Positions 703 to 46,319 of a DNA stretch of 64,000 nucleotides are shown one piece after another (within the stretch, counting starts at the first letter, position 1; every line of letters begins with the position of its first letter). The stretch lies in NCBI GenBank assembly GCA_965205015.1, contig OZ242029.1, positions 3,840,001 through 3,904,000 on the forward strand, given 5' to 3'. The notes under the pieces are model-generated. The model saw only the letters and a program-made list of their open reading frames with translations, did not search any database and was not told the DNA's origin. The position numbers and the translations under genes are program-made. The stretch comes from Candidatus Poribacteria bacterium (lineage in GTDB: Bacteria > Poribacteria > WGA-4E > WGA-3G).

Positions 703-787
703 GTGGGAGGGGTTTGTAACCCCGATTTCCTTTGGGATACGTGAAGGTAACAAATTCACCTAACGAACTACAAGGAGAAATTAAAAG
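703..787 (+). repeat. Family A ~85 nt element (degenerate copy), ending at the ATG of the next gene
   Basis: GTGG + hairpin GGGGTT-TGT-AACCCC ... TACGTGAA ... CACCTAACGAACTACAAGGAGAAATTAAAAG-ATG; matches the 3' ends at 33679-33707 and 45273-45302. Confidence 0.65.
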
Positions 788-10563: not shown

Positions 10564-10597
10564 ATTATCTTCTATGAGCAAAGCAGATCTCGGGGGA

Positions 10598-10688
10598 GAA
10601 GACTGGAAGACTGGAAGACTGGAAGACTGGGGGGCATCTATCCTTCCATCCTTCCCCCCTTCCAACTTCGCTCCTTCCTTCCTTCCAA
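10598..10688. repeat. Family B element: (GAAGACTG)x4 arm plus CCTTCC-rich arm
   Basis: Tandem octamers followed by partly complementary ATCCTTCC repeats; core shared with 12172-12238. Confidence 0.8.
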
Positions 10689-10694
10689 TGGATT

Positions 10695-13082
10695 TCATAG
10701 ATCCTCTCCCTCAGTGAGAATGAGTCTCTGATTGATAGACAAGTTTCGATGCGTATCCACTTGACCGGAGGGCCAGACAATTTCAAGGATATCCACCTTC
10801 GTATGTGTTCCAAGCCCGATTTCAAGGGACAAACTGTTGGTCGATCCGAATCCACATCCACCGCTGACTTCTCGGTAAATTACGTCATTACCGATATGCA
10901 GGGTAACTTTGGCACCGATACCATCCCGATTGCTTTTGACCCCGACGAGTTTTAGGGTGAGATGGTTGTTTCCAGTGCCATTGTTGCGATAGAAGAGATT
11001 GTGCCACTGGTCGCCGATAAATGCGCCGCCGACGGGGACATAGATATCAACATCGCCATCCGTATCGATATCACCAAAGGTTACGCCGTGTCCTTTTCCG
11101 ATGTTTCCTAAACCCAGCGCAGCCGTCGCGTCCGTAAAAGTGCCATCGCCGTTATTGCGGAAGAGCGCATCGCGTTCGAGTCGTCCCATCTGTGGCGCGC
11201 CGGTGGCAAGATAGATGTCGAGGTAGCCGTCGCTATTGATGTCCCCAAAATTCGCTCCCATCGCGCCATACGCGTGGTAGAGTCCCGATTCACGAGTGAC
11301 ATCTGTGAAGGTGCCATCGCCGTTGTTGCGATACAGCACTTGCCGGTCAGCATCGTGGGGGGCAGTGCCTGTGATTTGACCGGCGATGAAGGCTTGAAAA
11401 GAGCCTGAGTTTGAGATGAAGATGTCCAGATCCGCATCGTTGTCTACATCGAGAAAGAAGGTAACAAAGGCATCCGTAACAGGGAGACTCATACCTGTCG
11501 TCGGGGTAACATCGGTGAAGGTGCCATCGCCGTTATTGCGGTAAAGCACATTGGATTGCCCGAAGTTGACGACATGCAGGTCGATGTGTCCATCCTTATC
11601 GTAATCCCCCCAAGCGGTGCCGAGGGAATTCCCGGTATCTGCGACACCGGCAACATCTGCGGTATTCGTGAAAGTGCCGTCCCCATTGTTGCGATATAAG
11701 ACATTCGCAGCACCATCACCGATAACACCGTCAGCAATATAGAGATCAATGTAGCCATCATTGTCGTAATCCGCCCACGCGGCACAGAAACTACTCTGTG
11801 GGTCTGCGACACCTGCGGTGTGTGTGACATCGGTGAACGTGCCATCGCCGTTGTTATGATAGAGTGTGTTCTCTGCCGCACCCGACCAACCGCCACGGGT
11901 GATGTAGATATCCAAATAGCCATCGTTATCGTAATCGGCGAAGAGTGAACCCCAACCGCCTCTTGGATCGGCAATACCTGCTGCATCTGCTGTGTTTGTG
12001 AAAGTGCCATCGCCGTTATTGCGGAAGAGGGCGTGGGGTTGATACGTGCCCACCGCGACGATGTCTAAATCTCCGTCGTTATCATAATCTCCCCAGGCAC
12101 TGCCGCGTCCACCATCAACTTTGTCCATTTTTAACTCGGGGGCGATATCGGTAAAATAGTTGTCAGTTGTCGGGTGGAAGGGTGGAAGGGTGGAAGATTG
12201 GGGGACATCCATCCTTCCATCCTTCCTTTCTTCCATCCAAACGCCGCTGATGGCTATTTTAAACTCTGCTGGCAAGTCTTCTGGATAGCCACCGAGTTTG
12301 CTGTATGCTGTCCACAAGTTCCACAAGGTTTCGGGGTCGCGAGGTTTCAAACGGAGCGATTCTTTGAAATTCTCAACGGCTTTTTCAGGTGCGCCGTGTC
12401 GGAGATGATAGACTCCCAGATAGTAGTACGCCCCAGAATGACGACGGTAATTTTGGATGATATTTTCAAAACGTTCAGCGGCTTTGTCGGCTTCGCCGAG
12501 CCGGAATTCGGCTAAACCGAGTTGGAGCATCGCCTCCAGATTGTTCGGTTCGAGGTGCAGCACCTTTTCAAACTGGCGTTTGGAGGCGGAGAGATCCGGG
12601 ACGAGCATCTGTTGCGGCGCCCCCAAGAAATAGCCGAGCCTGATGCGTGCCTCGGTATCGTCAGGGTTTACCTCCAGAGCATTGGTGAGCGCAGCAGTAG
12701 AATCAGAAAAGCGTTGTTGATAACTGAAAACCTGTGCCAGCGTTAGGTATGCCTTTGAAAGTTGGTCCTTGTGGGAAGGGTTTTTAACCCCGATATCCTT
12801 AAGCAGCCCTATCAGCGTTTGCAACGTTTCTTCGGCAAGTCCCCATTTCTGTTGTCTAACATAGGTGCGGGCGAGCAACATGCGTACATCGTGAGCATTG
12901 GCATCGATCTGCAGGCACGCCTGAAACGCTTTTTCCGCTTCAGCGAAGTTGTTCCTATCTAATGCGTCCATGCCTTTCTGATAGTGCGCCGTGAGTTGCG
13001 GATTTACATCACGCTGCGGTGTATCTGTATTGCATCCGATACCGATGAAGAAAATAAGGAAAATAGAAAAAATCGCTCGCAT
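10695..13082 (-). CDS. Lipoprotein with TPRs, FG-GAP/VCBS propeller and ASPIC/UnbV domain (CRTAC1 family)
   Basis: IGIGC lipobox-like signal, TPRs, repeated DYDNDG..D and LYRNNGDGTFTD, SNRDGIGAKV and WPSG C-terminal domain. Confidence 0.92.
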   Translation of the reverse strand: MRAIFSIFLIFFIGIGCNTDTPQRDVNPQLTAHYQKGMDALDRNNFAEAEKAFQACLQIDANAHDVRMLLARTYVRQQKWGLAEETLQTLIGLLKDIGVKNPSHKDQLSKAYLTLAQVFSYQQRFSDSTAALTNALEVNPDDTEARIRLGYFLGAPQQMLVPDLSASKRQFEKVLHLEPNNLEAMLQLGLAEFRLGEADKAAERFENIIQNYRRHSGAYYYLGVYHLRHGAPEKAVENFKESLRLKPRDPETLWNLWTAYSKLGGYPEDLPAEFKIAISGVWMEERKDGRMDVPQSSTLPPFHPTTDNYFTDIAPELKMDKVDGGRGSAWGDYDNDGDLDIVAVGTYQPHALFRNNGDGTFTNTADAAGIADPRGGWGSLFADYDNDGYLDIYITRGGWSGAAENTLYHNNGDGTFTDVTHTAGVADPQSSFCAAWADYDNDGYIDLYIADGVIGDGAANVLYRNNGDGTFTNTADVAGVADTGNSLGTAWGDYDKDGHIDLHVVNFGQSNVLYRNNGDGTFTDVTPTTGMSLPVTDAFVTFFLDVDNDADLDIFISNSGSFQAFIAGQITGTAPHDADRQVLYRNNGDGTFTDVTRESGLYHAYGAMGANFGDINSDGYLDIYLATGAPQMGRLERDALFRNNGDGTFTDATAALGLGNIGKGHGVTFGDIDTDGDVDIYVPVGGAFIGDQWHNLFYRNNGTGNNHLTLKLVGVKSNRDGIGAKVTLHIGNDVIYREVSGGCGFGSTNSLSLEIGLGTHTKVDILEIVWPSGQVDTHRNLSINQRLILTEGEDL
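12159..12256. repeat. Composite repeat (heptamer arms around a family B core) inside the coding frame
   Basis: GTTGTCAGTTGTC-(GGGTGGAA)x3-GATTGGGGGACATCCATCCTTCCATCCTTCC...GCTGATGGCTA; resembles intergenic copies at 10598-10688 and 19095-19215. Confidence 0.75.
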
Positions 13083-13835: not shown

Positions 13836-15218
13836 CTACAAACCAGCCAGCCTTGCCTTCAACACTTCTATTGGGACGGGTTTTGTCAAATCCATGAGAT
13901 AGATCCGCATGTGATCGGAACGATCGGAACTGAATACGAGCGTTTTTCCGTCTTTTGAGAGACTCGGTTCGAAATGGGCACCGATGTGGTTCGTGAGTTG
14001 CGTTTTGTTTGTGCCGTCGGTGTTCATCATCCAGAGTGTATAATGATTATGCGCGTTCGAGACATAGAGTATCCGTTTGCCATCCGGACTGAAAGTGGGG
14101 TGGTAGTGGGAACCTGTATTCGTAAACGTTAGCTGCTGGACCACACCGCCTCCGGCATTGACACTGAAAAGTTGGTAGATGTCGTCCACCATTCCGGTGA
14201 AGGCGATCTGCTTTCCATTGGGTGCCCACGTTGGATGTCCATCGTCTACATCGTTGTGGGTCAGTTGCTTCTTGTTGGTGCCGTCGATATGAATGACGTA
14301 GATTTCTAAGGTATCATTATTCTCTGCGGGCGAGGTGACCTCGCCCCTACGGGATTCAAAGGCGATTTGTTGCCCATCCGGTGAAAAGACAGGGGCGCGC
14401 TGCGCGCCTTCTATATCAAGGAGTGGACGTTGGTTTCTTCCATCGGCATCCATGAGGTAGATCGTCGCAGTCCTCGGATCGGAACCACTCGCCTGGACAG
14501 ATGGGAGCATCATCCCGCCACGTGTGCGCTCAGAAACGAAGGCGATAGATTTACCATCGGGTGAAAAAGCAGGCATGTATTCATCAAGTTCATCGGTATG
14601 TGTCAGCTGCTGTAGCGTGCGAGTTGTGAGATCCATGAGATACAACTCGGCGTTCTGGAGACGATTTGAAGCGAAAGCGAGCCATTTTCCATCGGGTGAA
14701 ATTGCGGGACTATAATCGTCGGTATACTTTGCAGTAAACGTCATCATATTCCCTTTTTCAGTGAAGGTCTGCTCGTAGTCGTCGCTGCCTTCAGTGCGAA
14801 TCCGTTGGACGTGGTAGGCGTCTCCTGTGAGACCTGCTAATTGAAGGAGGATTTCTTTTTTGGGGGAATCGCTCAGCAGCTTTTGGAATTCGGGGCGCGC
14901 GAGGGAACGGTTACCACTGTGCCAGTGGACGCGCCCGAGGGCGAGTGTTATGTCTGCGCGTTTGGGTGCCAACTTTGCTGCATCTCTGAAGGCATTGACG
15001 GCTTGCGTAGCGTCTCCTAATCCTTCATACGCCAAACCGAGCTGATAATAAGCCTCGGCGTTGGAAGGGTTCTGCTTCAGTGCTGCCTGAAACTGCTGAA
15101 TGGCAGACGGAGTGTCGCCTGTTTTAAGGAAGGCTTTGCCGCGCTCAATCGTGGGATCCCCTCCGCACGCAAGCAGAATTAGGAGTATAGAAATGAATAG
15201 ATAGAAATAGTTTCTCAT
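13836..15218 (-). CDS. Lipoprotein with TPRs and TolB-like PD40 propeller
   Basis: LLACGG lipobox, TPRs, repeated P.FSPDGK.IAF.S.R; ATG 15218 overlaps the upstream TGA (ATGA). Confidence 0.9.
   Translation of the reverse strand: MRNYFYLFISILLILLACGGDPTIERGKAFLKTGDTPSAIQQFQAALKQNPSNAEAYYQLGLAYEGLGDATQAVNAFRDAAKLAPKRADITLALGRVHWHSGNRSLARPEFQKLLSDSPKKEILLQLAGLTGDAYHVQRIRTEGSDDYEQTFTEKGNMMTFTAKYTDDYSPAISPDGKWLAFASNRLQNAELYLMDLTTRTLQQLTHTDELDEYMPAFSPDGKSIAFVSERTRGGMMLPSVQASGSDPRTATIYLMDADGRNQRPLLDIEGAQRAPVFSPDGQQIAFESRRGEVTSPAENNDTLEIYVIHIDGTNKKQLTHNDVDDGHPTWAPNGKQIAFTGMVDDIYQLFSVNAGGGVVQQLTFTNTGSHYHPTFSPDGKRILYVSNAHNHYTLWMMNTDGTNKTQLTNHIGAHFEPSLSKDGKTLVFSSDRSDHMRIYLMDLTKPVPIEVLKARLAGL
14328..14350 (-). 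repeat. GTAG-type REP-like palindrome, in frame within the CDS
   Basis: GTAG-GGGCGAGG-TCA-CCTCGCCC; 22/23 identical to 20372-20394. Confidence 0.8.
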
Positions 15219-16864
15219 TTTTGCCTTATACGGATTCGCTGGTTTGCTGGGATATTGTGAAGCTTCTGCGTTTTCCCGTTCTGCCAAGTGATTTGTAATG
15301 TCTCAATCTGTGTGGCATCTCCCACACCAAATTCCGCGACGAAACTGTTCGCGGACATGTAGCTCTCACCGGCGTAAATTTCTCGGACCTGCGTCTGATC
15401 CGCCGTTTTCACCTGAATTTTCGCGCCGATGGCGTCTCGATTCGCGCCTGTTCCAACGAGTTTGACATAGAGCCAATTGTCGCGGTTTCCGCCCTCATTC
15501 CGCAATAGTGTCGGTGGGGCATGGTTGTTGACGATGAAAATATCGACGTCGCCATCATTATCATAGTCCCCAAACGCTGCGCCGCGACCGACTCGGATAG
15601 GGAGTGCCCCAATTCCTGCCTCTTGACTGACATTGGTGAACGTCTCGTCCCCATTGTTTCGGAACAACATATCAGGCTGAGGGATAAGCACCTCTGGACG
15701 ATTCAGCTCCTGGAAGGTGCTACCGTTCGTCACAAAGATATCCAAATCCCCATCGTTGTCATAATCAAAGAGGGCGGTACCCCATCCGATCTGTTTGATA
15801 CTCTCTTCAGCAAGTAGGGATGTATAGGATTCATCTACGAACCGGATCTGTTTAGCATCTGCGTCCTCTGCAAACAAATTTCTGTAGAGTGCGTTTTCCT
15901 CGTCCACCCAATGGCTCATAAAGAGATCGATATCACCGTCAGCGTCGTAATCACCAGCCGTGAGTCCCATAGAACCGCGAAAATCCGCTGCCCACGACTC
16001 GTTGCTGACATCCGTGAACGTGCCGCCTCCATCGTTGCGATAGATATGGTTCGTGGTGGTATCATTTGCGACATAGAGGTCCAGGTCGTTATCGTTATCA
16101 AAGTCGCTAAAGATGGCTTGCATACTTCTACCACCTACTGCCGCGATGCCCGTTTCATCGGTTACATCGGTGAAAGTGCCGTCCCCGTTGTTCCGATAGA
16201 AGACGTTATCTTGTGGCGCAAAGACGTGCGGATTCAGGGCACTCGGTACAGGTTTCCCAGATTGTAGGGATTCTGCCTTCATCTGTTCCAACTGTTTTAA
16301 GTCATAAGTAACATAGTTGCAAACGTAGAGGTCCAAATCAGTATCGCCATCTACGTCCGCGAAGGCAGCACCTGTGCTCCACAATTCGCAACCGACACCA
16401 GCGGCTTCCGTTACATCGGTAAAGGTGGCGTTTCCGTTGTTCCGATAGAGGACATTCTCACCGTAGTTGGTTAGGTAAAGGTCGAGGTCGGCATCACCGT
16501 CGACATCTGCGAAGACACACCCCATGCCGTAGCCTTGATGCCCAACACCCGCGGCACGGGTGATGTCCGTAAATGTGCCGTCCCCGTTGTTCCGATAGAG
16601 GGCATTGGCGTTTCCCTTATTCGTTTTGCCCTCTTGTGTAAAGGGACCGGGAATATTGACAATATAGAGGTCTATGTCCCCGTCGTTGTCTATATCGGCG
16701 AATCCTGCACCGGAACCCATGTCTTCTGGGAGTAGGCTGGAACGGGTTCCGCTTGAATGCTCAAACCGAATACCGGCTTCATTTGTGACATCAACAAAGG
16801 TAACAGCGTTGACAGTGATGGGTGTCAGAATAAAAATTGCGAGTGTTGCAAAGATGGAATGCAT
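15215..16864 (-). CDS. Secreted CRTAC1-family protein (FG-GAP repeats plus ASPIC/UnbV)
   Basis: FVDVT.EAGI.F.H, E.MGSG, D.DNDGD.DLY, RGAAFGDYDNDGD.DI, NRDAIGAKI. Confidence 0.93.
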   Translation of the reverse strand: MHSIFATLAIFILTPITVNAVTFVDVTNEAGIRFEHSSGTRSSLLPEDMGSGAGFADIDNDGDIDLYIVNIPGPFTQEGKTNKGNANALYRNNGDGTFTDITRAAGVGHQGYGMGCVFADVDGDADLDLYLTNYGENVLYRNNGNATFTDVTEAAGVGCELWSTGAAFADVDGDTDLDLYVCNYVTYDLKQLEQMKAESLQSGKPVPSALNPHVFAPQDNVFYRNNGDGTFTDVTDETGIAAVGGRSMQAIFSDFDNDNDLDLYVANDTTTNHIYRNDGGGTFTDVSNESWAADFRGSMGLTAGDYDADGDIDLFMSHWVDEENALYRNLFAEDADAKQIRFVDESYTSLLAEESIKQIGWGTALFDYDNDGDLDIFVTNGSTFQELNRPEVLIPQPDMLFRNNGDETFTNVSQEAGIGALPIRVGRGAAFGDYDNDGDVDIFIVNNHAPPTLLRNEGGNRDNWLYVKLVGTGANRDAIGAKIQVKTADQTQVREIYAGESYMSANSFVAEFGVGDATQIETLQITWQNGKTQKLHNIPANQRIRIRQK

Positions 16865-19843: not shown

Positions 19844-20458
19844 TTAAAGCAAAGCAATTGCTTGTTCCAAAGCCTTTGCTCTGTGACTCATCTGGTTTTT
19901 TATTTCTTCTCCTAATTCTGCGAAAGTCTGATGATAACCATCGGGTACAAACACAGGGTCATAGCCGAAACCGCTCTCTCCCACAGGATCATGCCTGATG
20001 TGTCCCTCACACACACCGAGGACCACCTCAGGTTCGGCATTCGGATGTACCACCGCAATCGCGGCGATGAATCGTGCCTGCCGATTGTTAACACCTTCAA
20101 GTGCCTGAAGGAGTTTTGCAACCCGGGTCTCATCCGTTGCGTCTTCACCCGCCCAGCGTTTGGAGTGAATGCCTGGTGCGCCCCCGAGAGCATCTACCTC
20201 CAATCCGGCATCATCGGCGAGGGTAAGATGGGATGTATATTCAGCAATAATGGATGCCTTTTTAACAGCATTCTCCGTATACGTTTTCCCATCTTCAATT
20301 ACCTCTGGGGCATCTGGATAATTTTCCAAAGAGATAATTTCGATAGGAGAGGCAGAGGACCTATCCTGTACGGGCGAGGTAACCTCGCCCCTACGGCGGA
20401 GCATGTTCGTGAGTTCTCGTACTTTACCTTGATTACGCGTCGCTAATACGAGCTTCAT
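19844..20458 (-). CDS. rdgB: RdgB/HAM1 non-canonical purine NTP pyrophosphatase
   Basis: [43 protein letters not shown]; follows rph. Confidence 0.95.
20372..20394 (-). repeat. GTAG-type REP-like palindrome, in frame within rdgB
   Basis: GTAG-GGGCGAGG-TTA-CCTCGCCC, encoding part of RRGEVTSP. Confidence 0.8.
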
Positions 20459-22485: not shown

Positions 22486-22520
22486 TTTTTAATCTATTGC
22501 TCCTGTGCGCGAGCCTATAA

Positions 22521-22575
22521 AGGAACGCATCCGATAGTTCTAACGCCCGTTATTTCACCGCAAGGTAAAATTAAA
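22521..22575 (+). repeat. Family A element 3' portion; its TTAA contains the stop codon of the vWA gene
   Basis: GGAACGCA..ATAGTTC.AACG..CCGCAAGGTAAAATTAAA aligns with 38596-38650. Confidence 0.75.
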
Positions 22576-24709
22576 CACGGTTGGCGAGGAACATCTCTGT
22601 TATTGCTAAAGCAAAAACCGCAAACATAAGATAGATCCATACATTCTGATTACGCTCTACATCCTCATTGTATTGCGCCACGAGTTCTGCTGTGGGTTTA
22701 TCTTCGACTAATTCGTCAGCCGTGCCTTTCAGCATACTCGTGAGCTCCTCAATATCACGCGCTGCAAGATCGGACTCCGTGGTATCAACGTTGACGACAA
22801 AATAGTCTGTAACTTCTGTGCCAGACCTATGAACTGAATAGATACCGGGCATTGCTGTGTCCGAATATAAAACACTATTTTGTGGTATATTCTCTGCTGT
22901 AGGTGTAACAGCTGTGTTCTGTCCCAAGCGCGTCTCACTGTTATTTGGATTGAAGATAGCGATCTCTTTGTTCCTGGTTCTACTCTTATTCTCAGTTTCT
23001 GAAACCTTTAGTTCTATGGTGTCTCCGACGCGGTAATCCGGCAGTGTTTCTGCGTCTTTCAGTGCGAGATACTTAATAGCTTCATGAAGGAAAGGTAAAT
23101 AAACGGCGCGAATCGGTAAATCGTTCCATTCTCGGTCTATGGTCGAGGTAAAACAGAGGACACGCCCCAGGTTTCCGTAAGGTTTCTCAAAGAGTGCAGG
23201 ACTGCCATCATCATAAGAAGCAATGACGGTGGCATTTTCCGTGGGTACCGCCTGAAAAATTCTATAAAATCGCGCCTTACCAAAATCGCCATGGTTCGGT
23301 TCCTTGAACGCAGCGAAAATCGGGTGTTCGTACTTCACTGTCGCCAGGACACGGAATTGCTGACGATCGAAAGCATCGCCGACGGGTCGGACGAAGTTAC
23401 AGGGCATCAAACCTATCTTGCCACCAAGGCGTTGTTCGTAGGCTTCCGTGTCTATGTTATCGCCCACTGTCAGAATCAATCCACCGCCTGCAGCAACGTA
23501 GGTCGCCACGCGTCCGGCTTCATTAGAAGAGAGTTGTGCTACATTGGCAAGCACCAGAACATCGGTACGATCGAGCGTCGCCGCGCTGGGCACCGAACTC
23601 GATTCGGTAAAATCAATAGGCACCGCGTCACGACCTGCCGTAAACGCCATTTTCATGAAAAACGTTTCCATTGTCTGATAGGAGCTTTGTGTCCGCGGTT
23701 TGTCACTGACCGCATGAACCCTGATTGACCGGAGACTTTGTAAAGTGAAATAGCGTTTGTTGTCGACCTGGAGCGCATCTTCAGGCAGTTCAACCCAACC
23801 TGTATGCGTCGCCTCGTCCTGAAAGTCCACACTGAAAGCAGCATCGGCGAGATCGTCTGGCTCAATGTCCAGCTGAACGGTGTGAATCATATTTCCATCT
23901 ACGAACAGACGGACCGGTAGATTTTCAACTGCCTCATCACTGAAATTATGGACGCGTGCAACCAGATAGGAGGTTTGCTGTTCCTTCAGGATTACGGGTG
24001 GTACATTGAGATCTGTTATCGCGAAATTCTGCGGTTGTTCAGGATGGACATCGATAAACTGAATTTGGACATCAGCGTTGAGTTTATCCGTTTCAATGAA
24101 GTTCTCCCATCCGCGTTTTTGCATATCCGCAATCACGTAAATCTGTTTTTCACCGATAGGAATAGACGCAAGTATTTCGTCAGCGGTTTGCAGCGCATCT
24201 AAATAATCTGTAGGTTTATAGGTGGCTTCTGCATCGTTCAAAGCCGCCTGAATGTGTGAAAACTCTGAACCGAGTGGTGCAACGACACGAGCACTGTCCG
24301 AAGAAAGAATAAGACCAGCGGCATCGGTGGCATCAAGCCCGTCAAGAATTTTGATACCCTCCTTTTTTGCGTTCTCAAATACTTTCTCATATTGCATACT
24401 ATAGGAGGTATCCAAAATGATAATTGCGTTTCGTTTGCCCCCCGTTTTCTGGGCAATGATTGGGGCTTCCGCGAAGAACGGTCGCGCAAACGCAAAACCG
24501 AGCAGTGCCAATATCAAAATACGCATGAGCAGCAGCAGTAACCGTTTCAATTTATGCCGTCTCACGTTCGTCTGATGCGACATCTGGATGAAACGGATGG
24601 TACCGAACACCAATCGTCTCGCGCGTTCCCGGTTCAACAGGTGTAAGATGAGCGGAATTGAGGCACCAACAACACCTGCTACCGCGAATAAAGGGGCTAA
24701 AAATATCAT
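22571..24709 (-). CDS. BatA-domain/vWA membrane protein with Ig-like and GATase-like domains
   Basis: N-terminal PLILHLL..FG..RF..LL.R..AFARP (BatA), MIDAS DTSYS, DNKRY, C-terminal TM ending EMFLANR. Confidence 0.9.
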   Translation of the reverse strand: MIFLAPLFAVAGVVGASIPLILHLLNRERARRLVFGTIRFIQMSHQTNVRRHKLKRLLLLLMRILILALLGFAFARPFFAEAPIIAQKTGGKRNAIIILDTSYSMQYEKVFENAKKEGIKILDGLDATDAAGLILSSDSARVVAPLGSEFSHIQAALNDAEATYKPTDYLDALQTADEILASIPIGEKQIYVIADMQKRGWENFIETDKLNADVQIQFIDVHPEQPQNFAITDLNVPPVILKEQQTSYLVARVHNFSDEAVENLPVRLFVDGNMIHTVQLDIEPDDLADAAFSVDFQDEATHTGWVELPEDALQVDNKRYFTLQSLRSIRVHAVSDKPRTQSSYQTMETFFMKMAFTAGRDAVPIDFTESSSVPSAATLDRTDVLVLANVAQLSSNEAGRVATYVAAGGGLILTVGDNIDTEAYEQRLGGKIGLMPCNFVRPVGDAFDRQQFRVLATVKYEHPIFAAFKEPNHGDFGKARFYRIFQAVPTENATVIASYDDGSPALFEKPYGNLGRVLCFTSTIDREWNDLPIRAVYLPFLHEAIKYLALKDAETLPDYRVGDTIELKVSETENKSRTRNKEIAIFNPNNSETRLGQNTAVTPTAENIPQNSVLYSDTAMPGIYSVHRSGTEVTDYFVVNVDTTESDLAARDIEELTSMLKGTADELVEDKPTAELVAQYNEDVERNQNVWIYLMFAVFALAITEMFLANRV

Positions 24710-24712
24710 TCC

Positions 24713-25687
24713 TCAAAGGACTCCTTGACGCTTCGCAAGATAGGACGCCAGTGCTAAATCAATCGGTGTTGCTGTTGTTATCAGGTTGTAATCAATATCC
24801 GATTGCCGTAGGGCGAGCCTATAAGTATCAAGAAATTCGTTGAAATTATTCAAATAACTCTCCTGAATCGCTTGCGGCGTTGTGATAATCTCAGCATCAT
24901 TTTCCGAATCGATAAAACGGATAAGGGCTTCTGCACTCCTTCCAGCTTCAAAGTCATCAAATGCAAGTTCCTGATGTGCGAGCACATGAAAGACGATGAC
25001 TTCGTGTCCCTCATATCTGAGATGCTCTAAACCCTCAACGACCTCTGTTTGATCTTCATCGTAGAGGTCGGAGACGAAGAGGACTAAGCCTCGCTTCGTT
25101 AGACGTTCCGCGATTTGATGCAAGGGCGTCCCCATCCGTGTGCTTTTTGCCGTCTGGAGCGTCTCCAACGTGAGTAAGATCGAATGCAAGTGCGATGTGC
25201 TACTACGAGCGGGAAGGTATTGGCGAAGTGTATCATCAAAGTACGCGAACCCAACGGCATCCCGCTGCTTTGCCATAAAATAGGCAAGTGATGCGATGAG
25301 GAAACTGGCGTATCTCAACTTTGTTAGCTTTTGTCCTGTACCGCTCTCCTCTATCGTCGGATCATCCACTTGTGCCGCATCCAACGGATGCAACATAGAC
25401 GCACTGGCATCCAAAAGGAGGTAGCAATTGAGATTGGTTTCTTCTTCAAATTGTTTAATATAGTAACGATCCGTGCGAGCGTAGGCTTTCCAATCTATAT
25501 GTTTCGTATCGTCTCCGGGCATGTATTGTCGGTATTGCGAGAATTCGACACTGAACCCGTGGTATGGACTTTTATGGAGTCCGGAGATAAAGCCTTCAAC
25601 GACAAATTTGGCAATTAATTCAAGATTCCCGATTCGGGCGAGGATTGCTGGATCTAAAAATGAGCGTCCTGCTGGGCTTTGTTGCAT
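24713..25687 (-). CDS. DUF58 domain protein (MoxR-vWA system component)
   Basis: GLHKSPYHGFSVEF.QYRQY.PGDD..IDWKAYAR, KQFEEETN, LDASASM. Confidence 0.95.
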   Translation of the reverse strand: MQQSPAGRSFLDPAILARIGNLELIAKFVVEGFISGLHKSPYHGFSVEFSQYRQYMPGDDTKHIDWKAYARTDRYYIKQFEEETNLNCYLLLDASASMLHPLDAAQVDDPTIEESGTGQKLTKLRYASFLIASLAYFMAKQRDAVGFAYFDDTLRQYLPARSSTSHLHSILLTLETLQTAKSTRMGTPLHQIAERLTKRGLVLFVSDLYDEDQTEVVEGLEHLRYEGHEVIVFHVLAHQELAFDDFEAGRSAEALIRFIDSENDAEIITTPQAIQESYLNNFNEFLDTYRLALRQSDIDYNLITTATPIDLALASYLAKRQGVL

Positions 25688-31964: not shown

Positions 31965-32027
31965 GAGGTAAACTTAGAACATTGCCCTCACAGAAATAAC
32001 GACTGGACACAGCAAAGGAGAATGGAT

Positions 32028-33482: not shown

Positions 33483-33590
33483 GTCGACCGTAATGAAATT
33501 GCGGAGTTTTTGCTTGGATGTTTCTTCAGGTATACGGAAATGGACTGTGTAATCTAAACGCACCTGACCGAACCGCAAGCAAAATTAGGA
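33483..33590 (+). repeat. Family A variant carrying an internal TTTTTGCTTGGATGTTT module
   Basis: GTCGACCGTAATGAAAT...CACCTGACCGAACCGCAAGCAAAATTAG. Confidence 0.7.
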
Positions 33591-33618
33591 ATGTGTTTAT
33601 CTTCACAGCACTAAAAAC

Positions 33619-33707
33619 ATAGCCTGTAATGTAATGGAAGGCGGGTCTACGGAGAAAGACTTTCAAGGTCCAACCCGCCTGACCGAACCGCAAGGAAAAT
33701 TAAAAAT
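33619..33707 (+). repeat. Family A ~89 nt element ending at an ATG
   Basis: ATAG-CCT-GTAATGTAATGGA-AGG-CGGGTCTAC...CCTGACCGAACCGCAAGGAAAATTAAAAAT-ATG. Confidence 0.85.
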
Positions 33708-34529
33708 ATGCCAGATTATAGACGAGATCAGGTTTTAGAACGACTGAAAGCAGAATTGGATAGAGATAAACCGTTACTCGCCGTGGGTGCGGGAACAGGT
33801 ATCACGGCGAAATTCGCGGAACAAGGCGGCGCCGACCTGATTGTGATTTACAATTCTGGTCGCTACCGGATGTCGGGGTTCGGCTCCTGCGCTGGACTGT
33901 TGGCTTATGGGGACGCGAATGCTATCGTTATGGAGATGGGTGAACGTGAGGTGCTCCCTGTTGTCAAAGAAACGCCTGTTATCGCTGGCGTGAACGGTAC
34001 AGACCCGACGCGCCGGATGAGCAACTTCCTCAAACAGGTCCGAGATGTCGGGTTCGACGGGGTTAATAACTTCCCAACCGTCGGTGTGATCGACGGGAAA
34101 TTTCGGCTAACGCTTGAAGAGACAGGGATGGGTTTCTACAAAGAGGTTGAAACGATCGGTATCGCGCATGAGATGGACCTTTTCACCATCGTCTATGTCT
34201 TCAATCCAGAAGAATCCGAGAACATGGCGAAAGTCGGCGCGGACGTTATCATTGCGCACATGGGGACGACGGTGGGTGGTACTATCGGTGCGGAAACGGC
34301 TTTCACGATCGAGAATGCGGCGGTACAGGTCCAGAAGATTTGCGACGCGGCACGAGCCGTGAACCCGGAGGTCATCTGTTTGGCACACGGTGGTCCCATA
34401 TCAAAAGCACCGGAGGCGGCGTTTATCAATGAGAAAACAGATGCCGTTGGCTTCGTCGGTGCCTCCAGCATTGAACGGTTTGCCTGCGAAGAGAGTATCC
34501 CGCGGGTTACGGCTTCCTTTAAGGAATGA
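33708..34529 (+). CDS. TIM-barrel signal-transduction / PEP hydrolase family protein (Tm-1 C-terminal-like)
   Basis: GAGTGITAK, DLIVIYNSGRYRM.G.GS.AGLL.YGDAN, NFPTVG, HGGPI, GASSIER. Confidence 0.92.
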   Translation: MPDYRRDQVLERLKAELDRDKPLLAVGAGTGITAKFAEQGGADLIVIYNSGRYRMSGFGSCAGLLAYGDANAIVMEMGEREVLPVVKETPVIAGVNGTDPTRRMSNFLKQVRDVGFDGVNNFPTVGVIDGKFRLTLEETGMGFYKEVETIGIAHEMDLFTIVYVFNPEESENMAKVGADVIIAHMGTTVGGTIGAETAFTIENAAVQVQKICDAARAVNPEVICLAHGGPISKAPEAAFINEKTDAVGFVGASSIERFACEESIPRVTASFKE

Positions 34530-36042: not shown

Positions 36043-38430
36043 ATGTCCAGTCCTGTCAAAGAAATAGAGATTTTAACTGCCGATGATGCCGAGTTGATGC
36101 GTATCAGTCGAGAAGGAACGCTCTCCTTAAGTCTGAACGAGATGCAGACGATTCAGACGCACTTCGGAACCCTCGGACGCAACCCCACCGATGTAGAAAT
36201 AGAGACTATCGCCCAGACGTGGTCTGAACATTGCGTTCACAAAACATTCAAAAGCACCATCCTCTATTCCGAAGAAGGCAAAGCATCAGAGCAGATTGAC
36301 GGCTTGTTTCCAACCTTCATTCAACGTGCGACTGAGGAGATAGCGAAACCGTGGTGTGTCTCCGTCTTTTCAGATAATGCCGGTATCATCGAGTTTGACG
36401 AGAAATTCAATCTCGTTTTCAAGGTAGAAACACACAACCATCCCTCAGCGATTGAACCGTATGGGGGGGCTGGGACCGGGATAGGCGGTGTCATTCGAGA
36501 CTCACTCGGTACGGGACTCGGGGCAAAGCCGATTCTGAATACGGATGTATTCTGTTTCGGGATGCCGGATACACCCTACACGCAGCTACCGAAAGGCACA
36601 CTTCATCCAAAGCGTGTCTTTAAAGGCGTTGTCGCTGGCGTGCGCGATTACGGCAACCGAATGGGGATCCCTACGGCGAACGGTGCTATTCTTTTTGATG
36701 CCCGTTATACCGCAAATCCACTCGTCTTCTGTGGGAATGTCGGTTTAATACCGAGAAACAGGTGTGAGAAATCCGTTGAACCCGGTGATCTGGTGGTTGC
36801 GATCGGTGGACAAACCGGGCGTGATGGCATCCACGGTGCCACCTTCTCTTCTGCAGAATTGGACGATACTTCTGAAAGTCTCGGTAGTGTGGTGCAGATC
36901 GGCAACCCGATTATGGAAAAAAAGATTGTCGATGCCCTGTTGCAGGCGCGGGATCGGCATCTTTATCGTTCCATCACCGATTGCGGTGCTGGAGGATTCT
37001 CGTCCGCTGTCGGAGAGATGGGAGAAGAGATAGGGGCAGAAGTGCACCTCGAACGCGTTTCTCTGAAATACGAAGGGCTCGCGCCGTGGGAAATCTGGCT
37101 CTCCGAAGCACAGGAGCGGATGGTCATTGCCGTGCCACCTGAGAATCTGGATGAACTCATGGCAATATGCGAGGCAGAAGTCGTTGAAGCCACAGTCCTC
37201 GGGACTTTCACAGATACACATAAACTGCAAGTTTTCTATGAAGGCACTATAGTTGCCGACTTGGAGATGGAGTTCTTGCACCATGGACTGCCAATGCCGG
37301 TGAAGGAGGCGGTTTGGGAGCCGCCGAAGCATCCAGATATGGCATCGCGAGATGGAGAAACCGAGAATTATACCAATGACCTCAAACAACTTCTCGCAAG
37401 TCCAAACATCGCGAGTAAAGAATCCGTTATCCGGCAATACGACCACGGTGTCCAAGGGGGTATGGTTATCAATCCGCTTGTCGGTGTGGAAAACGACGGA
37501 CCGAGCGACGCATGCGTAACGACTCCTGTCTTAGGCAGTCGAAAAGGTGTCATTGTTGCGAACGGCATCAATCCGAGATATAGCGACGTGGATCCATATC
37601 TCAGCGCAGCTGCGGCGATTGATGAGGCGTTACGGAATGTTGTCGCTGTCGGGGGAACCTTAGAAAAGACTGCGTTACTGGACAATTTCTGTTGGGGGAA
37701 TCCGGACAAACCCGACCGGCTCGGTGAACTCGTCCGTGCGGCGAGAGCGTGTTACGACATCGCAACTGCTTACGGCACACCCTTTATTTCCGGTAAAGAT
37801 AGCCTCTACAACGAATACAGGGATACCACGACGGGTGAACAACGCGCGATCCCTTCGACACTCCTTATATCTGCTATCTGTGTTATGCCTGACATTCAAA
37901 ACGCCGTTACAATGGACGTGAAAACGCCAGGCAATTTGATTTATGTCGTGGGGAATACCTACGCGGAATTAGGCGGTTCGCACTATTTCGGCATTCACGG
38001 GTTCGTCGGAAACACTGCCCCTGCCATTCGTCCAAGTGAGGGTAAGTTGACAATGGAACGTCTCAGTACTGCCATCAACAGTGGATGGGTGCGCTCGTGT
38101 CACGACTGCTCTGAAGGCGGTATCGGTGTAGCGGCGGCGGAAATGGCATTTGCGGGTGGCTACGGGATGTCTCTGCGTCTTGACAATATCCCGAGAGGCG
38201 AGGATATCAATGCTGACGATTTCCTACTCTTTTCAGAATCGAATAGCCGCTTTCTTGTAGAGATTGAACCGCAACACCAAGATGCCTACGAAAATCACAT
38301 GGCGGGGATACCCATTGGCTGTCTTGGCACTGTTTTAGATACATCCGAATTTGTTATCAAGGGAAAGACTGGACGTTTGATCGTTGAAACGTCCATTGAT
38401 ATTCTCAAATCTGCTTGGCAGGTTTTTTAA
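36043..38430 (+). CDS. purL: Phosphoribosylformylglycinamidine synthase subunit PurL
   Basis: QTWSEHC.HK, KVETHNHPSAIEP.GGA.TG, TGRDGIHGA, DCGAGG, SEAQERM, SGKDSL.N, HDCSEGG. Confidence 0.96.
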   Translation: MSSPVKEIEILTADDAELMRISREGTLSLSLNEMQTIQTHFGTLGRNPTDVEIETIAQTWSEHCVHKTFKSTILYSEEGKASEQIDGLFPTFIQRATEEIAKPWCVSVFSDNAGIIEFDEKFNLVFKVETHNHPSAIEPYGGAGTGIGGVIRDSLGTGLGAKPILNTDVFCFGMPDTPYTQLPKGTLHPKRVFKGVVAGVRDYGNRMGIPTANGAILFDARYTANPLVFCGNVGLIPRNRCEKSVEPGDLVVAIGGQTGRDGIHGATFSSAELDDTSESLGSVVQIGNPIMEKKIVDALLQARDRHLYRSITDCGAGGFSSAVGEMGEEIGAEVHLERVSLKYEGLAPWEIWLSEAQERMVIAVPPENLDELMAICEAEVVEATVLGTFTDTHKLQVFYEGTIVADLEMEFLHHGLPMPVKEAVWEPPKHPDMASRDGETENYTNDLKQLLASPNIASKESVIRQYDHGVQGGMVINPLVGVENDGPSDACVTTPVLGSRKGVIVANGINPRYSDVDPYLSAAAAIDEALRNVVAVGGTLEKTALLDNFCWGNPDKPDRLGELVRAARACYDIATAYGTPFISGKDSLYNEYRDTTTGEQRAIPSTLLISAICVMPDIQNAVTMDVKTPGNLIYVVGNTYAELGGSHYFGIHGFVGNTAPAIRPSEGKLTMERLSTAINSGWVRSCHDCSEGGIGVAAAEMAFAGGYGMSLRLDNIPRGEDINADDFLLFSESNSRFLVEIEPQHQDAYENHMAGIPIGCLGTVLDTSEFVIKGKTGRLIVETSIDILKSAWQVF

Positions 38431-38511
38431 GTATTCGCAAGGCGTTAAATCAAGCGATTGGTTTATTGACTGTTTTTCCTCAAATCCGCCTGCGCCGTTG
38501 TTGCAGGCTAT
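38423..38511 (-). repeat. Family A-related element in reverse orientation; terminal TTAA contains the purL stop
   Basis: Minus strand ATAG-CCTGC-AACAACGGC-GCAGG-CGG...TTAAAAAA; 5' hairpin nearly identical to 45214-45240. Confidence 0.7.
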
Positions 38512-38529
38512 CGTCTTAAGTTAAGGATC

Positions 38530-38651
38530 GTAGCATAAACTGTTGGTTTGTGCAGTCAAAACTGTAGTCCGTAATGAAATGGAGGACGGATAGATGGAAC
38601 GCACACAATAGTTCAAACGTCCTTGATAATTCCGCAAGGTAAAATTAAAAA
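38530..38651 (+). repeat. REP-like hairpin plus family A element ending at the purQ ATG
   Basis: GTAGCATAAAC-TGTTG-GTTTGTGC, then GTAG-TCC-GTAATGAAATGGA-GGA-CGG...CCGCAAGGTAAAATTAAAAA-ATG. Confidence 0.85.
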
Positions 38652-45095: not shown

Positions 45096-45107
45096 AGATT
45101 TTTAAGG

Positions 45108-45302
45108 TACGTGAAACCGCTAACTTCCGTGACCGAACCGCAAGGAATAATTAAAAATAAGAATGAAGTGTCTTGTAGCATAAACTGTTAGTTTGTGCGG
45201 GTTTAACGGGACCGTAGCCTGCAACAACGGGGCAGGCGGGTCTACAGAAAGGCACGTGAAACCTTTAACTTCCCTGACCGAACCGCAAGGAATAATTAAA
45301 AA
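45108..45302 (+). repeat. Tandem family A 3' end, REP-like hairpin and full family A element ending at an ATG
   Basis: TGACCGAACCGCAAGGAATAATTAAAAA twice (45130 and 45275); GTAGCATAAAC..GTTTGTGC at 45175; GTAG-CCTGC..GCAGG at 45214. Confidence 0.88.
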
Positions 45303-46319
45303 ATGAAGATTGTTGTTCTTTCTTATAGTCACCACGGACGCAGTATGGCGCGCACGGCGCACGAACTCGGACACGAGATTGTAGGCGTCATGGATGCCGA
45401 AGCGGGACCTCGGCAACAGTTGGCAGACGATTTCCAATGTCCCGGGTATGAGACGGCAGGAACGTGCCTTGATGCGAGCAAACCGGACGCGGCTCTCGTC
45501 GCGGGGAAACACATTGAGATGCCCGACCATGTGCAGGCGTGTGTGGACCTGCGTATCCCCTATCTCTTGGATAAACCCTTCGCCGATTGTGCGGATCGGC
45601 TGCGTCCAGCCGCTGAGGCATCCGAAAAGCACGGCGTTTTCAGTGCGCTGGTGCTACCGAATCGTGCGAGTCGAATCGTGAGTGTCGTCAAAGAGATGGT
45701 CGCTGATGGGAGTTTGGGTGACCTCGTCCTATACAACAGCAGATTGAATAACGGTCCCCCATCTCGCTATGACCCGACCCCTTCGGCTTGGCATAGCACG
45801 CCGAGTATATCGGGGGGTGGATGTTGGGCAGTCGAAGCGGCACACGGCATTGACACATTCCTTCAGTTTGTTGGCGATCGGGAAATTACAGTTGTCGGCG
45901 GGGTCATGTCCAATTCCATGCACGGCCGCGTTATAGAGGACAGTGGCGTTGGCGTGCTACGAACAGAAGACGGTATCACGGGCATAATTGAATCGGGGTA
46001 TAATTATCCGTCTGGCAAACGGGGTGGCGATCATTTCTTTAGATTTATTGGAACGAAGGCATCCGTATTTGAGCAGTACGGTCGCAACGGTGAACCTCTG
46101 ATTGAAGTGCATACGACCGAAGGGGTCCAGTTTAGTGAGGACATCTCTCACGGCGCGAGGATTCAAGGTGTGATGGGGGGTGCCTTTGATGCCATCCGCG
46201 ACGGTGGCGCCTTTGAACCGACGGTTGTCGATGCGGTGCGTATCCTTGAAATCCAAGATGCCGTTTATGCGTACGCTCGACAGGGTGTAATCACCCACGG
46301 TCCGCATCCAATGGGTTGA
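45303..46319 (+). CDS. Gfo/Idh/MocA family oxidoreductase
   Basis: Rossmann-like start, LDKPFA (EKP variant), GSLGD, SGGG...E..HGID. Confidence 0.85.
   Translation: MKIVVLSYSHHGRSMARTAHELGHEIVGVMDAEAGPRQQLADDFQCPGYETAGTCLDASKPDAALVAGKHIEMPDHVQACVDLRIPYLLDKPFADCADRLRPAAEASEKHGVFSALVLPNRASRIVSVVKEMVADGSLGDLVLYNSRLNNGPPSRYDPTPSAWHSTPSISGGGCWAVEAAHGIDTFLQFVGDREITVVGGVMSNSMHGRVIEDSGVGVLRTEDGITGIIESGYNYPSGKRGGDHFFRFIGTKASVFEQYGRNGEPLIEVHTTEGVQFSEDISHGARIQGVMGGAFDAIRDGGAFEPTVVDAVRILEIQDAVYAYARQGVITHGPHPMG

Follow-up and report, generated by a model that had tools for sequence, protein, structure and literature searches.

Elements of the repetitive extragenic palindromic (REP), bacterial interspersed mosaic element (BIME) and REPIN type carry the tetranucleotide GTAG by a short, GC-rich palindromic stem-loop in which pairing is kept, typically occur as inverted doublets, and are found flanking the gene of the REP-associated tyrosine transposase (RAYT), which lies between copies of the same REP. 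Correia elements (CREE/NEMIS) and other miniature inverted-repeat transposable elements (MITEs) are small, high-copy and non-autonomous, are co-transcribed with their neighbours and can alter expression. In T4-type phages, PeSL cassettes reportedly place a repeated stem-loop and a promoter before unrelated genes. The REP2 (CREN) sequences of Neisseria and the IR-A/IR-B sequences of Borrelia plasmids are dispersed, lack terminal inverted repeats (TIRs), have 5' stem-loops, and have at their 3' end a ribosome site with an ATG that is joined to differing open reading frames (ORFs) (Delihas 2011, PMC3184786). REP2 measures 120-150 bp, numbers 23-26 copies per genome, reportedly contains a promoter and is described as the marker of a contact-induced regulon (PMC3184786). 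Here we describe a repeat, called family A, which is present as eight units (A1 to A8) in a stretch of 64,000 nucleotides from a Candidatus Poribacteria genome (contig OZ242029.1, positions 3,840,001 to 3,904,000; hereafter the window). Judged from sequence comparisons, family A is probably a lineage-restricted, non-autonomous intergenic repeat acting as a portable intercistronic leader that brings a ribosome site and a start codon.

The unit is about 90-105 nt long and full copies consist, from 5' to 3', of (G/A)TAG, a 4-6 bp hairpin whose loop of 13-15 nt is conserved, a GGATATACGG box, a copy-specific middle of about 20 nt, a CCGCAAGG block and an A/T-rich tail of 12 nt; the tetranucleotide was GTAG in 45 of 83 copies and NTAG in 61 of them. 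In the full copy that had been flagged, A4 (33619-33707, plus strand), ATAG stands in place of the GTAG of most copies and is followed by hairpin P1 (33619-33642 for both), with arms GCCT (33622-33625) and AGGC (33639-33642) around a conserved 13-nt loop. The conserved box comes next (33643-33652), reading GGGTCTACGG where the consensus has GGATATACGG and occupying alignment columns that are nearly invariant, and then the locus-specific middle (33653-33673), in which paralogous copies differ and orthologous copies are conserved. The 3' module (33674-33707) contains CCTGACCGAA, then CCGCAAGG at 33688-33695, with its AAGG at 33692-33695, and then the 12-nt A/T-rich spacer, so that A4 ends one base before the ATG at 33708 (offset -1). 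The ORF behind it encodes 273 aa and belongs to Pfam PF09370 (PEP-hydrolase-like). A profile built from 54 full copies recovered A4 at 33618-33708 with an nhmmer E value of 2.9e-21.

Compared by description and not by sequence, REP2 of Neisseria and the IR sequences of Borrelia appear to be the closest described class. Like REP2, family A has no TIRs, has a hairpin near its 5' end and lies directly upstream of many unrelated ORFs, and it would itself supply the ribosome-binding site and the ATG. In contrast to REP2, it is 90-105 nt long, reaches 300-400 copies in each genome of its main clade, has one covarying hairpin after GTAG, and gives evidence, to be weighed below, that argues against a promoter. 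With Correia elements and other MITEs it shares a small size, a high copy number, an intergenic position and the lack of autonomy; however, its 5' GTAGCC... and 3' ...AATTAAAAA are not complementary, no target duplication or parent insertion sequence could be defined, and it keeps a fixed register with start codons. It also differs from an IS200/IS605-derived palindrome element (PATE), since its ends are unlike those of the resident element, and from the PeSL cassettes, being bacterial and having a signal that is apparently translational.

The register with start codons was the main observation. As had been predicted, copies in the window end exactly at the ATG codons at 788, 33708, 38652 and 45303, and in each docked copy the AAGG is the only Shine-Dalgarno-like motif before the start. 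The genes behind these four copies are unrelated, encoding an unknown protein, the PEP-hydrolase-like protein, purQ and a GFO/IDH/MocA oxidoreductase. The 3' motif was matched six times in the window when 0.24 matches were expected from shuffled sequences, and none of 100 shuffles reached six. In an independent set of 83 non-redundant copies, anchored on the 5' half alone, 50 had the start of a long ORF 9-14 nt past the AAGG (12 nt in 36 copies, 13 in 9 and 11 in 3), this start being ATG in 45, GTG in 3 and TTG in 2. Genome-wide counts were taken from relatives; the nearest of them, G003, is collinear with the window at 84-94% nucleotide identity. In 400 kb of G003 that were not selected for the element, the profile found 37 copies, about one per 10 kb, and 17 of them docked within -2 to +3 nt of a start; three further copies had an ATG 11-19 nt later, two of these with an AAGGAG of their own and one with a duplicated end module. 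Among the pattern matches listed, a long-ORF ATG followed within 1-4 nt in 71 of 132 (the pattern stops before the ATG). The predicted docking at start and stop codons held for the starts, but the 5' ends of the units were not at stops, the gap from the upstream stop varying from 2 to more than 200 nt. Tandem copies were often separated by an orphan ATG together with 15-75 nt that stem from the 5' end of the gene itself; a tandem duplication including the gene's first codons was seen directly here.

Comparison with related species indicated that the element takes the place of ordinary leaders. Of 30 orthologues of the gene starting at 33708, 13 had the element and 17 a native AAGGA, AAGGAG or GAGG leader. 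Fifteen of these native sites were 5-8 nt away from the ATG, and the remaining two (L181 and L187) were 11 nt away. When the window was compared with G003, G068 and G061, the leader state differed between genomes at eight gene starts. At five of these the alternative to the element was a native GGAG, GGAGG or AAGGAG placed 6-9 nt from the start, at two (13082 and 25687) it was a leader without a clear Shine-Dalgarno sequence, and the eighth was the start of a gene with a von Willebrand factor A (vWA) domain, whose ATG lies 3 nt past the TGA of the upstream gene in the window (24709-24715) and where G003 and G068 have 60-90 nt, the family-A 3' module and GTG or TTG starts. The gene behind A8 has a native AAGGAG-7 nt-ATG leader and no element in G068 and G061, and in two cases the window was native and G003 had the element (AAGGAG-7-ATG at 32022 and GGAGG-8-GTG at the 5685 gene). 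Native and element ends were alike except for 3-4 extra spacer bases in the latter. At purL of G068 and G061, the element and its ATG replace the native Shine-Dalgarno sequence together with the native ATG and three codons, which implies that the ATG travels with the element. Upstream of purQ the element was present in all four relatives in which the start could be located (five were fetched, the start not being located in L118), with differing content.

The collinear block of 64 kb has some 16 element sites, and at about half of them the window and G003 are not in the same state; the element is present or absent between species at about 88% nucleotide identity. In a metagenome scan with purQ, all relatives obtained had 63% identity or less and none was a close Poribacteria strain, so that the scan gave no clean filled/empty pairs. 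The AAGG lying 12 nt before starts, the replacement of native Shine-Dalgarno leaders and the presence or absence between species together support what the original prediction had proposed, a non-autonomous repeat that doubles as a portable translation-initiation leader.

Once in place, orthologous copies change slowly and are under constraint. A4 was 92-96% identical to its counterparts in three other species, whereas the adjacent coding sequence (CDS) was 85-88% identical and its third positions 64-70%. In six of seven pairs of orthologous copies, identity over the last 70 nt was 83-94%, as compared with 64-76% at third codon positions.

The distribution of family A is narrow. When 185,579 species genomes were searched with a gapped pattern of 18 bases, at least 115 loci were obtained, and among the 80 matches listed by title only five came from other taxa, each with a single match, which is the chance level; the matches listed are thus almost only from Poribacteria. 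A sixth locus, L084, was dropped because its flank is without the element and runs into Ns. When the motif CCGCAAGG-N(2-4)-AATTAAA was counted across 81 sampled Poribacteria genomes, 303-409 copies were found in 8 genomes, 7-109 in 12, 1-2 in 6 and none in 55, the reversed pattern giving 0-1 as a control. Family A is therefore an expansion within one clade and not a signal of the whole phylum. Literature searches on intergenic repeats and RAYT in Poribacteria gave no description of it.

All eight units listed in the original prediction exist in the window, seven being found by the profile at E <= 1e-3 and A1 weakly. Upstream of A4 and in tandem with it lies A3, a degenerate copy (33529-33586, plus strand, E = 5.8e-10) after which an orphan ATG comes next and whose 3' part is conserved in G003. 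A6 (38562-38651, plus strand, E = 8.9e-13) is a full copy docked at the purQ ATG (38652) and a member of a second 3' subfamily (...TTCCGCAAGG), and A8 (45213-45302, plus strand, E = 7.3e-23) is a full copy docked at the ATG at 45303 of the oxidoreductase gene; the profile matches to A6 and A8 extend to 38652 and 45303. A7 (45104-45157, plus strand) is a partial copy that duplicates, locally and with 93% identity, the 3' half of A8, and it is missing from G003, which has an empty site there. A1 (738-787, plus strand; nhmmer 738-786, E = 0.22) comprises the 3' module only, docked at ATG 788, and in G003 its orthologue is clearly recognized as a 3' module (E = 4e-11). The two antisense copies overlap stop codons, as had been noticed: A2, a partial copy antisense to its neighbours (22516-22575, plus strand, E = 3.9e-5) and absent from G003, overlaps with its end the stop TAA of the vWA-domain gene (22571-22573), and A5 (38425-38511, minus strand, E = 1.2e-8), which belongs to a subfamily with an inverted core (CCTTGCG), overlaps with its A-rich end the convergent stop TAA of purL (38428-38430, offset -6). 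Just upstream of A6 and A8, at 38529-38557 and 45175-45203, we also observed a second GTAG-plus-hairpin unit, with a stem of about GCA(T/C)AAAC/GTTTGTGC; at the 45.1-kb site this unit is absent from G003, being a separate insertion polymorphism.

Two features of the 3' module, the AAGG and the A/T-rich tail, admit different interpretations. The AAGGA may act as a Shine-Dalgarno sequence on read-through (operon) transcripts, or the A/T-rich hexamer 6-7 nt before the ATG may be the -10 box of a leaderless promoter, with transcription from the A of the ATG and no ribosome site needed. The 16S rRNA ends in ...CACCTCCTTTCT, the canonical tail being CCTCCTTTCT, and the AAGGA variants can pair with this tail over 5 bp. 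Docking was more frequent among AAGGA copies (55/79) than among AAGGT copies (18/41; Fisher P = 0.0099), and the perfect TATAAT variant was the least docked of all, in only 2 of 12. The ordinary genes of the host, represented by 344 ORFs without the element, showed a GGAG peak at -11 and an AAGG peak at -12/-13 and no TANNNT peak. Scanning of two element regions for sigma-70-type promoters called no site, and no -35 was found at a usable distance. The docked copies include TTG and GTG starts, which also speaks against the leaderless reading. Separately, an extracytoplasmic function (ECF)-type or sigma-70-type promoter in the hairpin loop, the box or the CTGACC block was considered and rejected because the spacings misfit.

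The position of the copies relative to genes bears on the same question. Of 75 hits, 51 were sense and 10 antisense in co-directional spacers, 4 were in convergent spacers, 1 was in a divergent one and 9 were genic or other. A co-directional upstream gene was present for 34 of 35 docked copies, the background of divergent arrangement being 22% (P = 1.8e-3), and a single one of 52 host spacers was divergent, as compared with 18% among spacers of at least 80 nt (P = 3.5e-4); divergent spacers, which bear promoters, are avoided. The RNA evidence consisted of metatranscriptome contigs holding 5-8% of the sampled words, from related strains with 90-95% identity, and uncovered stretches in them were not counted as evidence. 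Bases before the purQ ATG are included in several of these contigs, X1 record 4 and X6 record 26 starting at 38632 and X2 record 12 extending 71 letters further upstream, and this argues, weakly, against transcription starting at the ATG. Many RNA-library contigs carry whole family-A copies, and DNA carry-over is possible.

Several observations weigh against a ribosome-site leader. About 40% of the copies are undocked at any start, and the leader role cannot thus be the whole story. The distance from AAGG to the start, 12 nt, is 3-4 nt above the 8-9 nt spacer of ordinary genes, and at the key positions of a -10 box the 50 docked copies match in 92% (A at -11) and 90% (T at -7), with some copies reading TATAAT or TAAAAT at -12 to -7; these features are what a leaderless promoter would have, although T at -12 occurs in just 16% of docked copies. 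The genes used in the tests of context were longest-ORF calls and not annotation, and the RNA-library contigs are assemblies that end at repeat borders, in which transcript ends are not visible. Taking the sequence evidence on both sides, we favour a ribosome-site leader on read-through transcripts as the probable reading, and we consider a leaderless-promoter cassette unlikely.

The resemblance of family A to REP sequences raised another alternative, namely that it is a selfish element of the REP type, moved by a RAYT/HUH transposase and without a role in expression. Docking would then result from a preference for insertion at T(T)AAAA-like targets, sequences that abound immediately upstream of ATGs and, read on the opposite strand, at TAA stops. 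Like REP, family A has GTAG beside a hairpin with compensatory changes, and it lies in transcribed co-directional or convergent spacers and rarely in divergent promoter regions. Three empty sites (the 7160, A7 and A2 sites) keep a terminal T(T)AAAA, and A-runs are found both at the 3' end and at a distance of 4 nt upstream of GTAG. These hint at an A-rich insertion target, but the compared genomes are about 86-88% identical, so that the junctions are blurred. The antisense copies whose A-rich end overlaps a convergent stop, two in the window and two in G003 with one more adjacent, would also agree with such a preference. Y1 transposases were available in each of the five genomes searched (G001-G005), with 6-8 hits.

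However, none of 12 Y1_Tnp loci examined, including all six of G003, was flanked by a family-A hairpin, and 10 of the 12 (all but L125 and L161) were bracketed by inverted repeats of their own. The 141-aa class of Y1 transposase is part of a 1.8-kb tnpA+tnpB element whose ends, aligned in five copies, are unlike family A, and the remaining Y1 genes, mostly longer, are RAYT-like. The link to HUH/RAYT transposases made in the original prediction was therefore not borne out. Family A further differs from REP in its stem of 4-6 bp with a conserved loop of 13-15 nt, in running on for 60-70 nt into the ribosome-site module, and in having no cognate RAYT among the 12 Y1 loci; unlike REPINs, its copies seem to be for the most part solitary or directly repeated, with sense orientation, and not to form inverted doublets. 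Inverted pairs such as A5/A6 do occur, and their hairpins differ. In addition, the native ribosome site is gone at several sites, with the element as the only candidate, and at purL the native ATG and three codons are replaced too, an outcome not accounted for by simple insertion next to a target; nor does this reading fit the constraint on orthologous copies. GTAG followed by a hairpin is a resemblance to REP only, and a selfish REP without effect on expression seems to us improbable. A relationship to integron attC sites or to IS605 ends was rejected, there being no resemblance.

Other mobile systems were observed in the same searches. An IS605-like element of about 1.8 kb, with a 139-aa TnpA, a second ORF and conserved ends, was found at L121, L122, L124, L126 and L131, with several copies in G002, G004 and G005. 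Several RAYT-like genes of distinct kinds, each between inverted copies of its own REP family, were found per genome in G002-G005 (L130, L153-L160 and L162), and at L130 four tandem REPs with a 50-nt period lie beside the RAYT-like gene. Several REP-RAYT systems appear to exist side by side in Poribacteria. The window also has two copies, 89% alike, of a unit of classic REP appearance (14318-14352 and 20362-20396), in which a GGGCGAGGT/ACCTCGCCC palindrome comes after GTAG.

The hairpin of family A is maintained by compensatory change. At its four core pairs both sides were changed in 4, 10, 7 and 22 of 54 sequences, and its covariation score was not reached in any of 500 shuffles; no other hairpin of the unit had support from covariation. 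The earlier statement that stems change while pairing is kept stood for these pairs, but the GGGGTT/AACCCC stem attributed to A1 belongs to a different repeat, which precedes A1 at 701-732 and has a second copy at 12769-12800, 91% alike, with a GGGGTTTGTAACCCC core. Orthologous stems in sister species also differ and yet stay paired, with GTCC/GGAC and GCAC/GTGC at purQ, and with GATC, GCTC/GAGC and GCGC at the 33708 gene. RNAalifold retained only this first hairpin and the invariant CC/GG pair. The CC-GCAA-GG ending, described previously as a mini-hairpin, is present as a sequence, but the hairpin found no support from covariation: the motif is invariant in 53 of 54 aligned copies, so that structure there cannot show covariation, and its core is inverted in place (CCTTGCG) in the subfamily that includes A5. 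Single copies folded no better than shuffled sequences (mean z = -0.32, 2 of 54 copies below -2), which, with the foregoing, suggests that a single small hairpin is maintained and that the element is not a structured RNA domain. Pairings of the type GGAT...ATCC, spotted by eye in some copies, proved to be out of register across copies. A minisatellite with a unit of 10-11 nt (TTTTTGCTTGGG... on one strand, CGCAGAAATAC... on the other) was observed inside the hairpin loop or directly behind the hairpin, with a repeat number that varies, in L049, L053, G003 (C1, about 1097560-1097620) and G068/G061.

A structured cis-regulatory RNA common to many leaders (riboswitch, attenuator or thermosensor), which had been offered as the other explanation, is already largely refuted and highly improbable, because one covarying hairpin and the conservation of entire orthologous copies, middle included, are opposed by the folding scores given above, by the lack of any Rfam match at the gathering score (best matches at chance level, E = 4-9), by a proposed second helix (CGG/CCG + AGG/CCT) in which breaks outnumber compensations, by a middle that pairs with the start of its own CDS no better than with other CDSs (P = 0.66), and by downstream genes that are functionally unrelated.

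Further repeats were observed in the window. Two arrays, at 10596-10672 and 12167-12243, are built from an 8-nt unit (GGAAGACT / GGAAGGGT) and have a CCTTCC-rich mirror behind them, the second lying inside a long ORF (10695-13082) and the first just outside the 3' end of that ORF. Long minus-strand ORFs at 11000-12100 and 15500-16700 are made up of degenerate repeats that recur about every 150-170 nt, and they are probably repeat-domain surface proteins.

Returning to the ribosome-site leader, we propose that the element works in two parts. The 5' part, with GTAG, the covarying hairpin and the GGATATACGG box, would stand behind the upstream gene in a REP-like manner, a likeness of position only, and the hairpin may act at the level of RNA or of DNA. 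The 3' part would give the downstream gene its translation start, by means of an AAGGA complementary to the 16S tail, an A/U-rich, unstructured spacer of 12 nt and a start codon. The cassette, including the ATG, seems to have repeatedly overwritten native Shine-Dalgarno leaders, and our guess is that it spread by homology- or microhomology-guided replacement at sequences resembling ribosome sites. A more far-reaching version is possible, though doubtful: family A would be a self-propagating cassette of 5' leader and start codon that overwrites ribosome-binding sites, and sometimes first codons, in operons, so that in its main clade 300-400 genes per genome (about 5-7% of the total) share a leader whose hairpin and box are read by a common trans-acting factor, and a mobile element would thereby have built a lineage-specific regulon of translation or mRNA stability that spans the genome.

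If the proposed role is true, a small repeat would have rebuilt the translation starts of genes by the hundred, several hundred in each genome and among them the housekeeping genes purL and purQ, in one clade of uncultivated sponge symbionts. Family A would then be of the same kind as REP2 of Neisseria, with more than ten times its copy number, and the before-and-after pairs in sister species would make the origin and spread of repeats carrying a ribosome-binding site and ATG testable. Gene callers and start models should allow, in genomes of this kind, for ribosome sites of a second class, with AAGG at -16, and family A breaks short-read assemblies at gene starts.

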